This document shows positions 3,001-15,000 of a DNA stretch of 64,000 nt, piece after piece. The DNA is from Fidelibacterota bacterium. Its GTDB lineage: Bacteria > Fidelibacterota > Marinisomatia > Marinisomatales > JABMOV01. The stretch covers positions 1 through 64,000 of the forward strand of contig JBHHUC010000001.1 of NCBI GenBank assembly GCA_046861395.1. Direction: 5' to 3'. The position numbers were made by a program. Position 1 is the first letter of the stretch, and every line of letters begins with the position of its first letter.

Positions 3001-6000
3001 ACCAGAGGAACGACGGGCGGCCGTCATGGAATTATTACCTTATCAGCGCGCCGATTTCAAGGGTATCTTTGCCGCGATGGAAAGCCTACCGGTTACCGTC
3101 AGGCTATTGGATCCGCCGCTGCATGAGTTCATGCCGCAGAAAGATGACCAGATTCATGAACTGGCACAAGAATTGGGTGTCTCCGATGAAAAGATTCGTT
3201 CCCGGATTGCTAATCTTCATGAATTCAATCCCATGTTGGGACATCGCGGTTGTCGCCTGGGAATTGCATATCCCGAAATAACCGAAATGCAGGCTCGCGC
3301 GATTTTCGAAGCCACAGCTGAATTGGTGTCTGACGGAACCACTGTACTTCCGGAAATCATGATACCTCTGGTGGGAACTCATACCGAATTTGAACACCAG
3401 GAAGGCGTTGTGCGCGCCGCCGCGAAGGCCGTTATGGATGAAACCGGTGTTACCTTTGATTACCTGGTTGGAACCATGATTGAATTACCCCGCGCCTGTC
3501 TGACGGCGGATGAAATCGCTCAAAAGGCCGAATTTTTCAGTTTCGGAACTAACGATCTCACACAGACCACTTACGGTTTCAGTCGGGATGATATCGGCGG
3601 TTTTCTGCCCGAATACCTGACCAATGGAATTCTCACCCACGATCCGTTTGAATCGCTGGATACGACCGGTGTGGGTCAGCTCGTTAGTATGGGCGTCGAA
3701 AAAGGCCGGGGTGTCCGCGAAAACCTCAAAATCGGCATCTGCGGTGAACATGGTGGAGATCCTGCCTCCATTGATTTCTGCCATCGGACGGGTCTGGATT
3801 ATGTGAGTTGTTCTCCCTTCCGGGTTCCCGTAGCCCGGCTGGCTGCCGCCCACGCCGCCCTGAAAGATAAATAATAGCTTATTGATAAAAGATCAGCAGA
3901 TTATTACTTCCACAAAATCATTATAATCAGCCGAATTAGCGATTCTGACTATTTTATCGGCTCAAACTCTGCTGTAAAGTGGCGTAGGAATCGGGGTTGG
4001 TGTGTAAGCTTAAATCCGTTCAGGGTGTGGCGCTTTTCATAGAGCTGTCGCGCCACTTCGATGACATAATCAATGTGGCTCTGGGTATGGGTCCGCCGTG
4101 GCAGGGCCAGTCGCACAAGTTCCATGGCAGTGGCCGTCTCTTCGCCGGTCTCCGGATCATGTTTCCCGAACATAACGGAACCGATTTCCACCGTGCGGAT
4201 TCCTCCTTCCACAAAGAAAGCTGCCGATAGACTTTGTCCGGGATATTGCAAGGGATCAATGTGCGGCAGCAATGTTTTGGCATCAATATAGACGGCATGA
4301 CCGCCCGGCGGCTGAATAATGGGATAGCCAATGTCTGCCAGATGATCGCCCAGGTAACGCGCTTCCGCAATACGGTATTCCAGATAATCCTCCTGAATGA
4401 CTTCCTGTAATCCCACGGCGATGGCATCGAGGTCGCGGCCCGCCAATCCGCCATAGGTGGGAAAACCTTCTGTCAGTATCAATAAATCCTTTTCCTGCCG
4501 GGCCAGAACGTCGCTATTGGTGCATAAAAAACCACCGATATTCACCATTCCGTCCTTCTTGGCGCTCATAGTGCAACCATCGGCATAACTCATCATTTCC
4601 TTTACAATATCTCGAACCGAAACAGCTTCATACCCCGGTTCACGCAATTTTATAAAATAGGCGTTTTCGGCAAACCGCGCGGCATCGAAATAAAGGGGAA
4701 TGCCGTAAGGCTCCAAAACTTCCCTGACGGCTTTAATGTTTTCCATAGATACCGGCTGGCCGCCCCCAGAATTATTGGTAATGGTCAGCATGCACAGTGG
4801 AATACGATTGGCGCCCACTTCACGGATGGTTTCTTTCAATCTTTCCACATCCATATTCCCCTTGAAAGGGTGGATGCGCTGCGGGTCCAGCCCTTCCGGA
4901 ATCACCAGGTCCCGGGCCTCTGCCTGTTGGAATTCAATATTGGCACGGGTCGTATCGAAATGTGTATTGTTGGGCACGACATCCCCGGCCTTACACATTA
5001 CGGAAAACAGGATTCTTTCGGCTGCCCGCCCCTGATGTGTCGGTATGACATGCTGAAAACCGAACAAATCCCGGACGGAAGTTTCGAAACGCAGGAAACT
5101 GTCACTCCCGGCATAGGATTCGTCCCCGCGCATAATGCTGGCCCATTGTTCGGAACTCATGGCACCTGTTCCGCTGTCGGTAAGAAGGTCAATCATGACA
5201 TCCCGGGACCGGATTTTGAATACATTATAGCGGGCTTGGGCCAAAATTATTTCCCGTTCCTCCCGGGTGGTCAGATGAAGCGGTTCTACGGATTTAATAA
5301 TAAAGGGTTCAATAACGGTCCGAAAGGACTGGTCATTGGCATTCATGATTACTCCAGATTTTGGCCTCTAAATTACGGACGGATATAAAATACAGGAGAA
5401 AAGAAAACCCCGCCGAAGCGGGGTTTAGAAAGGAAAACCCTATTCGATTAATTCGCCACCTTCTACAAAGTCAGCCAGATTATAGGCCCCGTCTTTTTCC
5501 ATCTGTCGGGCAGCCTTGACAACCGTCTTTCGTGCTTCATCCACCTCACGTTTCGCCACGGCACCTTCCACCGGCTCATACATGGCCTGCTTCTTCTGTG
5601 GTAAATTGTCCAATACTTTTTTTTCTACTTCTTCCGGCATTCCTTTCAGGGCCAGGGCCACCGTATCCAAATCCACGGAATTCATGAGATCTCGTAACAG
5701 ATTATCCGGGAAATATTCGAAAATATTTTCGAATGTCAGATGGTACTTCTGGATTTCCTTGGCCAGCTCCGGACTTTCCCGATTAATGGCTTCGAAATAT
5801 TTTTCCTCTTCTTGGGGTGGCATTTCACTGAGAATATCGGCAATTTCCTTGCCGCCACCACGTGAGAATTCCACGGTGCGGGGAAGGAAATGTGATTTTT
5901 CCCTTAAATCGGCGGCTACATTGACCACCGCTTCCAATGGAATATCTTTCAGGCTACCCAGTTCGATCAGGGTGCGTCCCTTGTCCTCTGGTTTCAAACG

Positions 6001-12000: not shown

Positions 12001-15000
12001 TGGTTTCGCCGCTCCAGTTCTTACGGAAAACAAAATCAACTTTAACGAAATCGGCGCGACGTCCACCGATATTCTTTATTTCACCGGTAAAAATCAGATT
12101 GCCTTGTTTGTCTTTTTTCTCGGTGATATTTCCCACCAGAACACAGTTGGCTGAAAATTGTTTGGCGGCTTCCCGCGTCATCGGATCGGCCGATGTATAT
12201 TGCGGCTGGGCCAGTTTTGGCATGGGCGGAGGTGAATAGCTGTCGCGGATTTGTTCCGGGATATACTCCTGCTGCTCTTCCGTGATGATATTGTCTACGA
12301 CACGGACAATGTTATCCCGTTCAATAATCAGATAACCAACCAGTGTTTCCACCTTTAGCGATTTTTCATCCTGATAAACGATTTTTCCAAAGACAGTACT
12401 GCCGTTTTTCAGGATAATTTCCTTGGAATATATCGCCAGCGGATTGACCCACATTTTGCTCATGGCCTTCAGATCGTTGACTTCCGTGTTCAAGTGCTTG
12501 ATTTCCGCCACCATTTTTTTGATCTCAAAGCTAAGCTCATTAATGACATAGGACTGATCTTGACTGCCGGCAGCCGGTGTTTTGTCCGCGGTTTCTTCTT
12601 CGCCGGGGGTTACAGCTGCGGTGGTGGACGGTGGTGGTGCCTGGGACAAATGGAGTTCCAGGTCTTCCACGTCATTGGCAATGACCGAAACCGGAACGGA
12701 GGCCTTTCCCAAGGGACCCGCATTTACATCAAGAACATATTCGCCCGGCAGGACATCCTTAAACTTAAATTTACCTTTGCCCATTCCCATGCGGCCCTTG
12801 GTTTCGGTTCGCTGAACCTCCACCCCGTCCTCCGTTTGGAGTAACACTGTGGTTACAACCTTTTCACCCTGAGTGTCCAATACGGTACCGCTAATAGTGT
12901 ACGTATCGGCAGGGATCGCGAAGGAAGTAAGGGCGCATAGCACTAATACAGCTATGGTAAGCCTTTTCATGTGCGCCTCAATTTTCATTATAACTACCTC
13001 GGATTTGCAGTTCCTGGAGTTAAAACTCCAAGACGGTAAATATTACCGTTAAATTTCTTATCAATCAAGAATTAATCCTGATTGGTTTTTCAGGCTGATT
13101 TTTCTGAAAATACGCCTCCTGAGCCCCTTTTTCTTCCGCTGGATTGATATGATTGTGCTCTTAAAGTTGGTAAACATCGGCAAATTTTTTCTCCAGATAA
13201 TCCATGAACGGTCCGGCTGAAAGCGGTTCACCGGTTAAATCCTCAATCAACTCTGACGCTGTTTTACGCCGGCCAAGAGTGTGGATGTTTTTCCCCAGCC
13301 AGTCCCGCAATCCACTCAATTTCCCGGCGGCAATTTGCTCATCCAGGCCGGATATTTCCCGGCGGGCCTGATTCATGATGGGAACATTGTAGAGATTGCC
13401 CAGAGCGTAGGTTGGAAAGTAGCCAAAGCCGCCGAAGGACCAATGCACATCCTGCAGTACACCATTGGCATCGGAGTCGGGACGAATTCCCAAATAACTT
13501 TCCATTCTTTCATTCCAGACATGGGGTAAATCCGCCACCGGCAAACCATCGTTGATCACCATTCGTTCCACCTCAAATCGCAGCATGATGTGCAGGTTGT
13601 AGGTGGCTTCATCGGCGTCCACCCGGATCAGGGACGGCTTTACAGTATTGATGGCCCGGTAGAACTGGTCCAATGATACATCCCCCAGATTTTCCGGAAA
13701 AATGGCTTGTAGTTTCGGATAATAATGCTGCCAGAAGGGCCGGCTGAGACCCACCAGATTTTCCCAGAGGCGGGATTGGCTTTCATGAATGCCATAGGAA
13801 ATGGCTTCTCCGAAAGGCGTACCGAACCATTCCGGATCCAAGCCCTGCTCATAGAGGGCATGACCGCCCTCGTGCACCGTGCTGGAAAATCCGGATAAAA
13901 AATCATGATCATCAATTCGAGTTGTAATTCGCACATCGGTGGGATGAAAATTGATGGTAAAGGGATGCGCCGATCGGTCCTGGCGGCCACAGGTCAGATC
14001 ATAGCCCATGTCCTTCAGGACGGAAACGCCGAAAGACCATTGTTTATCCGCCGGGTAAAATTGTTTCAATATGTCCTGACGGGTATCTACCCCGGATGCT
14101 TTTATTGTTTGCACCAGCGGAACGAGACGGTCGCGCACTTCGTCAAAAAGTTCAGTTACAACCGCGGATGTCATGCCCGGCTCGAATGTATCCAACAGTG
14201 TATCGTACGGCGTCTCCTTGGTTCCCAGATACCCGATTTCCCGTTTTTTCAATTGGATGATTTTTTCCAGAATCGGGGCAAAGGCCGAAAAATCATTATT
14301 CTTCCGCGCATTGGCCCATATCTGTTGGGCGCGAGCAGTGGTTTCCGACAATTCGGCAACAAACTCCCCGGGCAGGGCGGCGGCGCGGTGATAATCGCGC
14401 CATATTTCATAGATCAATCGATTTTTTTCGTTGGAAAGTCCGTCTTTAACGTGGCCCGTATCCAGATCAACCAGTTCCGACAGTGGCCCCCTGATACTGT
14501 CGCTCACCAGTCGCTCATGAGCCAATGATTCCAGCAGGGAAACCTGTTCCGCCCGTGCTTTCCCACCACCTTCGGGCATGTAGGTCTCCTGATCCCAGTG
14601 CAGTAGAGACGCGGCGGCCCGTAAATTGGCAATGGCCCGCAATTCTTTTTTTAGTGTGTTCAGTGGTTTCATTAAATCTCCTCGTTATGGTTTACTGCCA
14701 GAAAGATTTCAATAATTCCTGGTCTTTGCGCGCCCGGTCCAGGGCTTTTTGAGCTTTCTCCCGAAGCTCCTCCGGCAACCCTTTTTCCAGTGCGGCAGTA
14801 TAGTATTCGATAATATTCTCAAAATCGTCTTCATCGTTTTTTTCATATCCGCGGGCGATCCAGTACAGGGCAACGGCATCATCCGGCTTATAATATGACG
14901 CTTTGTTAAACTGCTCGATGGCATCCCAGAGCTGGCCGGAACTGCCCTTTTTAAAGAGGCGTTTGCCGCATAACATGGCCAGGGAATATTTCATGTCCAC

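Follow-up and report, generated by a model that had tools for sequence, protein, structure and literature searches.

The window, a 64,000-nt stretch of DNA from a Fidelibacterota bacterium, carries on its minus strand seven tightly packed ORFs (5440-12988), of which adjacent ones either overlap or lie 3-9 nt apart. Pfam domains detected in their products are FliG_N/M/C, YscJ_FliF_C (only this one in the FliF-like protein), MotB_plug with OmpA, MotA_ExbB, and TPRs. ORFs, spacing and domains thus bear out the seven-gene operon proposed in an earlier note. As claimed there, the operon is separate from the flagellar genes of its host, since contig C63 harbours a complete flagellar locus, which includes separate MotAB, FliF, FliG and FliM. 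The following features were located:

14692..15360, minus strand: candidate accessory TPR protein, in relatives often encoded directly upstream of the operon
11831..12988, minus strand: gene 1 ("BS"), exported protein with signal peptide; ortholog in 34/34 carriers and 0/31 non-carriers
10900..11853, minus strand: gene 2, periplasmic coiled-coil and TPR protein of CpoB/YbgF-like layout; accessory, 0, 1 or 2 copies
9542..10903, minus strand: gene 3 ("OMP"), predicted ~12-stranded outer-membrane beta-barrel (residues 44-266), ~75-residue coiled coil, TPR
8745..9533, minus strand: MotA/PomA-type stator subunit; Na+-site threonines T164, T196, T197; rotor-contact R93, K94, E100
7986..8741, minus strand: MotB/PomB-type subunit; ion-binding D33, plug, OmpA-like peptidoglycan-binding domain
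6385..7977, minus strand: FliF-like rotor ring protein, probably translated from the second Met
5440..6375, minus strand: FliG-like rotor track; shortened N domain, M and C domains, compressed torque helix
5405..5426, minus strand: terminator-like hairpin at the operon end, 3' of the FliG-like gene; 9 pairs (6 G-C) and T tail, consensus match only

Terminator-like sites over the whole region are not above chance (15 observed, 11.9 +/- 3.7 in shuffles), nor is the number of promoter-like sites, and no RNA holder is listed for the seven-gene operon. The accessory TPR gene lies upstream of the operon in 27 loci of relatives; within the order, a single-protein query detected its product in 14/19 carriers (one match weak) and 0/13 non-carriers.

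Stator, rotor and envelope proteins

Na+-driven stators have a Na+ site composed of PomA T158, T185 and T186, two of which are Ala in H+ stators (PMC10374538). Residue spacing in operon MotA agrees with the PomA numbers (PMC10374538), and T164, T196 and T197 are each kept in 78/78 sequences. By this threonine criterion, the operon stator would be of the Na+-driven PomAB type. Rotor-contact residues are preserved as well (R93 in 78/78, K94 in 73/78 and E100 in 76/78), and the protein matches MotP/PomA models with E 1e-53 as against 0.03 for TolQ/ExbB. MotB D33 is kept in 79/81 sequences, the other two having gaps, and the invariant residues of the OmpA domain are present. MotA and MotB together thus display the ion-binding Asp, plug, peptidoglycan-binding domain and rotor-contact charges of flagellar-type stators.

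The FliF-like protein consists, in this order, of a probable signal peptide, RBM3, a coiled coil of ~150 residues, one TM segment and FliG-binding C-terminal helices. Its first segment, taken for a TM in the earlier note, rather looks like a cleaved signal peptide. The single RBM3 has a long beta-collar loop with an invariant PG(F) motif and the C-terminal helices bear an invariant Trp; P128, G129 and W498 are kept in 82/82 sequences. One RBM is seen in the AF2 model (pLDDT 73, pTM 0.35), and the 18 Foldseek matches with E<=1e-3 are, without exception, chains of the FliF MS-ring. As modelled, the protein is folded as an RBM3 ring domain, and neither Pfam nor the model reveals RBM1 or RBM2. In contrast, flagellar FliF of the same genome possesses both Pfam domains; the FliF-like profile does not align with it past the C-terminal tail (5% probability).

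The FliG-like protein had been described as a full three-domain FliG. All three Pfam domains are indeed over cut-off, but the N domain is cut short, covering Pfam positions 2-69 of 104. The protein scores 112.6 bits with TIGR00207, below the fliG equivalog cut-off of 226.7, and shares 22.3% identity with the flagellar FliG on C63 over 323 columns. A former concern, that the torque-helix motif differs, can be softened: the helix is shorter, but its charges (K261, E267, E270, K275/R276) are conserved (basic 261 in 86/86, E267 in 84/86, acidic 270 in 85/86, basic 275 in 86/86). Judging from this alignment, a compressed +,-,-,+ torque ridge is retained. The EHPQ FliM-binding motif is not conserved in FliG-like proteins.

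Gene 1 encodes an N-terminal beta-sandwich, a coiled coil, a small beta domain of LA_0442 type and a C-terminal Ig-like domain. Outside the order, BS lacks the N-terminal beta-sandwich and starts with a lipoprotein-like signal. Sequence comparison yielded no solved relative (best E 0.17). The product of gene 2 does contain TPRs, yet its assignment as BamD/YfiO-like could not be upheld: tol_pal_ybgF matches better (E 1.4e-13) than BamD (E 4.6e-11; 42.7 bits, cut-off 81.4), both being below cut-off. The barrel of gene 3 (AF2 model, pLDDT 74) structurally resembles VIA (Z 15.9, rmsd 3.4, 185 residues aligned to 8xua) and NanC (Z 15.8), the nearest family being YjbH (TM 0.72). Its C-terminal TPR domain is highly conserved. 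When the coiled-coil/TPR piece of OMP was modelled together with the RBM3 region of the FliF-like protein and two periplasmic domains of MotB, the predicted complex obtained a score of 0.04 (mark 0.32).

Distribution, co-inheritance and fused relatives

We wondered how widely the operon is kept and whether flagella accompany it. Strong FliG-like matches occur in 226/316 genomes and 28/31 families of Marinisomatota (SAR406). In the order Marinisomatales, 158/233 genomes have a match, strong in 146 (E<=7e-41; 12 weak rows were set aside). FlhA is over cut-off in 20/233 genomes of the order, 12 of which are among the 146 carriers, so that 134/146 carriers are devoid of it; in our panel this applies to 27/34 carriers. 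The three genomes of the same family all encode the FliG-like protein and are without FlhA. The view that most Marinisomatales keep the operon, mostly without flagellar genes, is thereby confirmed. An apparent excess of flagella in non-carriers (13/31 versus 7/34) was rejected as a selection effect, because many non-carriers had been picked from rows listed for flagellar FliG.

The order MotA-MotB-FliF-FliG is conserved in all 64 loci that extend 3.5 kb or more upstream. The whole seven-gene order, claimed to be kept, is found in 46 of the 52 loci that offer 8 kb or more; five others lack the TPR gene, and L060 has the four motor genes but, at this site, none of the three envelope genes. The position of the operon among housekeeping genes is stable.

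A second, unlinked locus encodes a HEAT lipoprotein and a paralogue of BS (hhalign 99.8%). It is intact in 34/34 carriers and in 0/31 non-carriers: envelope genes are strictly co-inherited with motor genes. Both loci decay together in two genomes, G338 and G339. A partial FliG-like match in G337 was dropped as evidence of decay, as it sits at a contig end. An additional MotA-type gene is found in 22/27 carriers without FlhA; genomes with neither system have a MotA-type match in only 2/18 cases, one of them with stops.

In a phylogenetic tree, a long branch (SH-aLRT 100) divides the operon FliGs from 42 FliGs of flagellar type, and by sequence the operon FliGs form a deep non-flagellar group. 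With them group natural FliF-FliG fusions from other phyla, which contain RBM3 only and whose TPR lipoprotein is orthologous to the TPR domain of OMP. Loci were scanned for the gammaproteobacterial-type subgroup, fusions of Balneolota, Fibrobacterales and Elusimicrobiota being left out, because the broad fusion alignment had no sufficiently conserved stretch. Fused systems share the plan of rotor, stator, TPR and barrel (35/35 and 33/36 loci), and their five-gene module is compact and bordered by housekeeping genes. The gamma-type barrel does not align with that of OMP and has no detectable homology to it, and profiles of HEAT, BS and the BS paralogue gave no match in the neighbourhoods of 60 gamma-type loci. 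Phosphatase, CTP synthase and enolase genes beside these loci are variable and were treated as neighbours. A tblastn search of the plasmid collection for a fusion protein gave no match.

Conserved key residues, joint inheritance of envelope and motor genes, and the deep non-flagellar FliG group all argue that the operon is, as the earlier note had it, independent and not a flagellar remnant, and this extends to the whole phylum.

Comparison with known systems and possible function

The operon shares with the flagellar motor core an RBM3 fold with RGD-type motif and FliG-binding tail, a three-domain FliG with charged torque ridge, and a stator with plug, peptidoglycan-binding domain, rotor-contact R/K/E and PomA Na+ threonines. 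It differs in that the FliF-like protein has one membrane anchor and a long periplasmic coiled coil in place of RBM1/RBM2, and the FliG-like protein has a shortened N domain, a torque helix ~three residues shorter, and no EHPQ. FliM/FliN, export gate, rod, hook and filament are missing, and the system has barrel, TPR, BS and HEAT partners of its own. A single RBM3-type domain outside the flagellum is also known from the non-flagellar SpoIIIAG ring of Bacillus; that match is weak (Foldseek 5wc3, E 0.39), FliF chains match far better (E 1e-7), and neither FliG nor stator is known there. Engineered Salmonella/Vibrio FliF-FliG fusions form rings without other flagellar proteins, in which FliG is labile (PMC6079021), and in a FliF-FliG deletion-fusion the C-ring is smaller and rotation is CW (PMC9389320). 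These laboratory constructs are flagellar and contain RBM1-3, in contrast to the RBM3-only natural relatives of the operon system.

Very probably, the operon encodes a working non-flagellar rotor-stator, which we infer to span the envelope physically. Stators of MotA5B2 type, held on peptidoglycan via MotB, would pass Na+, as their residues suggest, and the charged face of MotA may turn the FliG ring, complementary charges being conserved on both sides. FliG presumably sits on the C-terminal helices of the single-pass FliF-like protein, given the motif and the natural fusions. According to the modelled fold, RBM3 domains could build a hollow ring without export gate that the coiled coil lifts towards the outer membrane. 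The PG(F) loop, placed like the FliF loops that pass torque to the rod in flagella (PMC13626733), might, by its position and co-conservation, contact a putative outer-membrane assembly of barrel-coiled coil-TPR protein, BS, its paralogue and HEAT lipoprotein. FliMN_C was found in 0/5 carriers without FlhA (92-96% complete) and chemotaxis links are absent in the samples, so the motor would turn one way.

As to its output, we tentatively favour a Na+-driven rotary motor acting on the outer-membrane complex and moving or handling surface cargo, such as an adhesin or filament, in slow movement or attachment. In its favour, SprA is universal (65/65) while GldM was found in 0/5 genomes, so that secreted surface proteins seem to exist without the Bacteroidota motor. 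Since CheW occurs in only 2/27 carriers without FlhA, any movement would be unguided. Counted against such cargo were this rarity of CheW, description of the sole cultured phylum member as non-motile (PMC11652737), the small genomes (1-2 Mb) of many carriers, and the lack of a co-inherited adhesin or filament in the few families tested. The gamma-type barrel, not detectably homologous, the PG motif, which is out of register with the Vibrio FliF loop in the alignment, and locus L060 were counted likewise.

Somewhat less likely, the same motor does envelope work, energising release, insertion or export of some outer-membrane cargo (e.g. T9SS substrates) or remodelling. Like the GldLM motor of Bacteroidota, which drives the GldKN ring in T9SS and gliding, the system would be an inner-membrane motor, driven by ions and acting on an assembly linked to the outer membrane, in a SprA-bearing member of the FCB group; its ring, however, would be a FliF/FliG inner-membrane rotor turned from the cytoplasmic side. 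GldM was found in 0/5 genomes in a search whose control set gave no positive over cut-off, leaving its sensitivity unproven; together with the presence of SprA, this would fit envelope work. Tol-Pal and Ton offer an analogy with other transducers: their motors belong to the same 5:2 family, the operon includes a CpoB-like coiled-coil TPR gene, and energy may likewise be directed to the outer membrane; the missing chemotaxis link would also fit. Yet the operon stator is flagellar-type (MotB plug, OmpA domain), no TolA/TonB domain occurs among the seven genes, and a geared ring would replace that transducer. Moreover, SprA is present in 65/65 genomes, including 31/31 non-carriers, so that, as the earlier note remarks, the operon is not an obligatory, general T9SS motor. 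Three single-contig non-carriers have only one motor gene, of ExbB/TolQ size (~200 aa). General secretion and division therefore do not need the operon motor, and many families have lost the system.

We consider it improbable that barrel, TPR, BS and HEAT proteins serve as a static scaffold of the stator while the ring turns another axle or filament encoded elsewhere. FlgT, MotX and MotY do encircle the Vibrio motor (PMC13626733), and the N-terminal domain of the gamma-type barrel protein weakly matches FlgT_M (E 0.0034, below cut-off). The second locus was found almost by accident, so more co-inherited loci may exist. Nevertheless, rod, hook and export-gate genes are absent from all 77 + 12 loci, the FliF-like protein lacks RBM1/RBM2, and the fused module is compact among housekeeping genes.

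Still a little less probable is a tethered, stalled motor acting as mechanosensor or tension generator, with ion flux or stator occupancy signalling surface contact. Were MotB bound to the wall and the ring to outer-membrane proteins, such a motor would be fixed at both ends; switch genes are absent, and flagellar stators are load sensors (PMC9389320). On the other hand, no signalling gene travels with either locus, and the extra stator sets of carriers fit torque output better.

The idea of a flagellar remnant or of an anti-phage motor like Zorya, suggested by homology of all four motor genes to flagellar parts and by matches of MotB to ZorB models (E 1e-16), is largely refuted by the complete flagellar locus in the same genome, the isolated FliG branch, key residues invariant over 78-86 sequences, the stable housekeeping neighbourhood, a MotA of only 262 aa without the long cytoplasmic tail of ZorA, and the lack of ZorC/D/E effectors and of notable PADLOC matches for MotA and the other genes.

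Returning to surface cargo, it is nearly an even possibility that the system is an ancient sister machine of the flagellum, an export-free Na+ FliF/FliG rotor driving surface motility or cargo via a TPR-coupled outer-membrane complex. To our knowledge, FliG and FliF have been treated as flagellum-only parts. A 2025 survey reports rotor proteins without filament in 11% of non-motile species and raises another function of rotor components as an open question (PMC12199754). The operon is a concrete, testable case: most members of this abundant marine phylum retain a conserved rotor-stator together with dedicated partners, and other phyla have it in fused form. Our sequence data point to an undescribed sodium-driven rotary machine kept by most Marinisomatota even without flagellum; no description was found in the open-access papers searched. 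Were it such an ancient sister machine, the system would exemplify a useful "half motor" alive today and serve as a candidate model for the state of the rotor-stator module prior to its union with type III secretion. The operon bears on the origin of the flagellar motor and offers structural biologists a rotor that is minimal by nature and has no switch. Matches to fliG or motAB in SAR406 genomes do not predict swimming.

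The seven-gene operon and its identity

Positions 5440-12988 are filled by seven minus-strand ORFs, neighbours of which overlap or stand 3-9 nt apart. In transcription order, their products are:

1. BS, exported beta-sandwich protein, 385 aa (-)
2. Coiled-coil TPR protein, 317 aa (-)
3. OMP (barrel, coiled coil and TPR), 453 aa (-)
4. MotA, 262 aa (-)
5. MotB, 251 aa (-)
6. FliF-like protein, 530 aa (-)
7. FliG-like protein, last gene, 311 aa (-)

Pfam and NCBIfam returned the same domains as listed in the earlier note. By NCBIfam the FliG-like protein scores 112.6 bits, far under the cut-off of 226.7 for true FliG, and the FliF-like protein 23.1 bits, far under the 129.75 for FliF. 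A complete flagellar locus with its own FliF, FliG, FliM and MotAB resides on contig C63 of the same genome, and the FliG encoded there is 22.3% identical to the FliG-like protein of the operon. Two genes upstream of the operon lies a biopterin-dependent aromatic amino acid hydroxylase gene (15275-16219 of the window); on the downstream side, genes for a tryptophanase-like protein (3949-5346) and for pyruvate phosphate dikinase (1172-3874) are frequent neighbours.

The operon probably encodes a working non-flagellar rotor-stator. Since it has invariant residues and partners of its own and a full flagellum coexists in the same genome, it is not a flagellar remnant, in agreement with the earlier note. 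Zorya was ruled out, and we consider a remnant or a defence system hardly credible. The same note had set the operon apart from the general T9SS motor. Indeed, the T9SS translocon SprA is above cut-off in 65/65 panel genomes, with (carriers) and without (non-carriers) the operon alike, and three single-contig non-carriers have just one ExbB/TolQ-size motor gene; the operon is thus not an obligatory T9SS motor. In this panel SprA is universal even at a genome size of 0.8-1.1 Mb, while GldM, part of the Bacteroidota T9SS motor, was found in none of the five genomes searched.

We found no description of the system in the open-access literature, including passages of PMC12505986, bioRxiv 10.1101/2024.07.22.604496, PMC12204202, PMC12199754, PMC9389320, PMC6079021, PMC13626733, PMC10374538 and PMC11652737. 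Supplements of PMC12199754 and PMC12505986 could list such genomes.

Rotor and stator proteins

Modelled with AF2 (pLDDT 73, pTM 0.35), the FliF-like protein has a single ring-building motif with a disordered beta-collar loop, a coiled coil of about 150 residues, one TM helix and a pair of helices at the C-terminus. Foldseek gave 18 matches at E<=1e-3, every one of them a FliF MS-ring chain (11-14% identity). The N-terminal hydrophobic stretch, followed by Gln in most homologues, is probably a cleaved signal peptide, as the "Q-rule" of the FCB group would suggest. All 82 sequences compared keep P128-G129 of the loop and W498 of the tail. In flagella, according to PMC13626733, loops of FliF that rise out of the beta-collar hold on to the rod and transmit torque. 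The PG motif lies within the beta-collar loop, yet out of register with Vibrio FliF in the alignment, so its likeness to the rod-gripping loops is positional only.

The charged ridge of the FliG-like protein is conserved (basic 261, 86/86; E267, 84/86; acidic 270, 85/86; basic 275, 86/86); its torque helix is about three residues shorter than that of Thermotoga FliG. Glu alone is retained from the EHPQ motif, which we take to be the FliM site of FliG. FliMN_C was absent from 5/5 carriers lacking FlhA (marker of the flagellar export gate), and CheW from 25/27 such carriers. The operon motor is therefore unswitched. The source genome itself has a complete flagellar locus, yet no CheW match; the same is true for three f2 genomes with FlhA.

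MotA T164, T196 and T197 are each invariant (78/78), and their spacing to P157, G160, M161, A193 and A201 equals that in PomA (P151, G154, M155, T158, A182, T185, T186, A190). The PomA threonines form the Na+ filter, two of them being replaced by Ala in H+ stators (PMC10374538). Rotor-contact residues R93 (78/78), K94 (73/78) and E100 (76/78) correspond to PomA R88, K89 and E96, with one residue fewer between. MotB D33 is kept in 79/81 sequences (two gaps), along with plug and OmpA-domain motifs. Since all these residues and motifs are conserved, a Na+-driven, wall-anchored, torque-type stator is a well supported prediction from sequence.

Distribution, predicted outer-membrane partners and possible output

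In Marinisomatales, the FliG-like protein was matched in 158/233 genomes, 146 of them at E<=7e-41 once 12 weak rows were put aside. FlhA is above cut-off in 20/233: 12 genomes have both, eight FlhA alone and 134 the operon gene alone. Among 316 genomes of the phylum (>=80% complete), 249 were matched, 226 at E<=1e-46 in 28/31 families, with 23 weak rows (E>=7e-34) put aside. The four motor genes keep their order in 64/64 loci of adequate length and all seven genes in 46/52; the arrangement BS-(0-2 TPR)-OMP-MotA-MotB-FliF-FliG recurs in 12/12 regions from 11 families. One chromosome-level record with N runs in the locus (L060:6733-10915) has the four motor genes, BS, TPR and OMP missing at that site. 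Relative G293 encodes the most divergent FliG-like protein (343 aa) and a flagellin-like ORF near the operon (L083:2175-3134). In relative G290, which lacks FlhA, a frame of 534 aa about 15 kb from the BS paralogue matches the FliG-like protein in part (L168 / G290:C8:33899-34420; E 2.8e-16).

The OMP model shows a barrel of about 12 strands, then coiled coil and TPR domain. The barrel matches 8xua (VIA Z 15.9, rmsd 3.4 A, 185 residues), and its closest family is YjbH.

Co-inheritance was followed in 34 carriers and 31 non-carriers, a panel hand-picked rather than random and including kin that are not independent. BS orthologues occur in 34/34 carriers (E<=1e-86) vs 0/31 non-carriers, and the BS search gave an additional second-site match in 34/34 carriers. 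Twenty second sites were fetched, and in 19 of them a BS paralogue, itself intact, adjoins a HEAT-repeat lipoprotein. In the source genome these are:

C97:3300-4031, BS paralogue, and C97:2176-3300, HEAT-repeat lipoprotein (together L158:2176-4031); unlinked to the operon, metallophosphoesterase gene upstream

The HEAT gene is intact in 34/34 carriers vs 0/31 non-carriers, by a profile built from 19 of those same carriers. In two non-carriers of one genus, G338 and G339, the TPR gene is directly followed by a FliG-like remnant on unbroken DNA, with OMP, MotA, MotB and FliF lost; at the second locus, HEAT and BS-paralogue genes are partly deleted or frameshifted. Since both loci decay together, the second locus is tied to the motor.

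An upstream TPR gene (14692-15360) is present in 14/19 carriers vs 0/13 non-carriers. Two further stator sets of the source genome have no rotor gene nearby: C23:16275-18388 (L155:8276-10389), with MotA-MotB and a 191-aa exported protein, and C109:566-2772 (L156), with MotA and two MotB genes. Orthologues of the C23-type pair occur in 26/34 carriers and 2/31 non-carriers, at a cut (E<=8e-65) chosen after the table was inspected. C8:28878-35228 encodes an exported repeat protein of 2117 aa, possibly an adhesin, which carries two OmpA-like domains close to the C-terminus.

As to the output, we tentatively favour movement of surface-exposed cargo via a putative link between ring and outer membrane. 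Envelope or export work is a somewhat less probable alternative. It is improbable that a separate putative axle is turned while the outer-membrane proteins serve as a scaffold for the stator, and a tethered sensor appears improbable too. The one member of the phylum in culture is described as non-motile (PMC11652737).

Fused relatives beyond the phylum

When 1.84 billion representatives were searched with a profile, the best 150 included, ranked after clusters of Marinisomatota type, 28 proteins between 594 and 777 aa long. They combine a signal peptide, an RBM3 whose loop bears the same PG motif, a TM helix and a tail of FliF type, which is joined to a FliG with its N domain shortened as in the operon FliG-like protein. 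Sources by name include Saccharospirillaceae, a deltaproteobacterium, Fibrobacterales and Elusimicrobia; Atlas clusters extend the fusions to Balneolota, Bdellovibrionota and Bacteroidota.

Neighbourhoods were analysed in a single subgroup, of which 60 metagenome loci were fetched. Upstream there are a barrel gene and the gene of a TPR lipoprotein (35/35 loci), downstream MotA-MotB (33/36). The TPR lipoprotein is an orthologue of the OMP TPR (52-70 bits in 44/44; hhalign 99%), whereas unrelated TPRs of the source genome score <=23 bits. Between OMP barrel and fusion-subgroup barrel, no relationship was detectable. The outer-membrane partner of this gammaproteobacterial-type subgroup (L111:8093-9160) has a weak FlgT_M-like N-terminal domain, then what is predicted to be a small barrel, with Phe as last residue.

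In a quick IQ-TREE run (90 rows, midpoint root, careful search not completed), a branch of 1.08 (SH-aLRT 100) divides 42 flagellar-type FliGs from the 20 sequences of operon type together with the 28 fusions. Of the 42, 41 were assigned by length and match pattern alone, and long-branch attraction may play a part. The flagellar FliG of the source genome falls among the flagellar-type FliGs.
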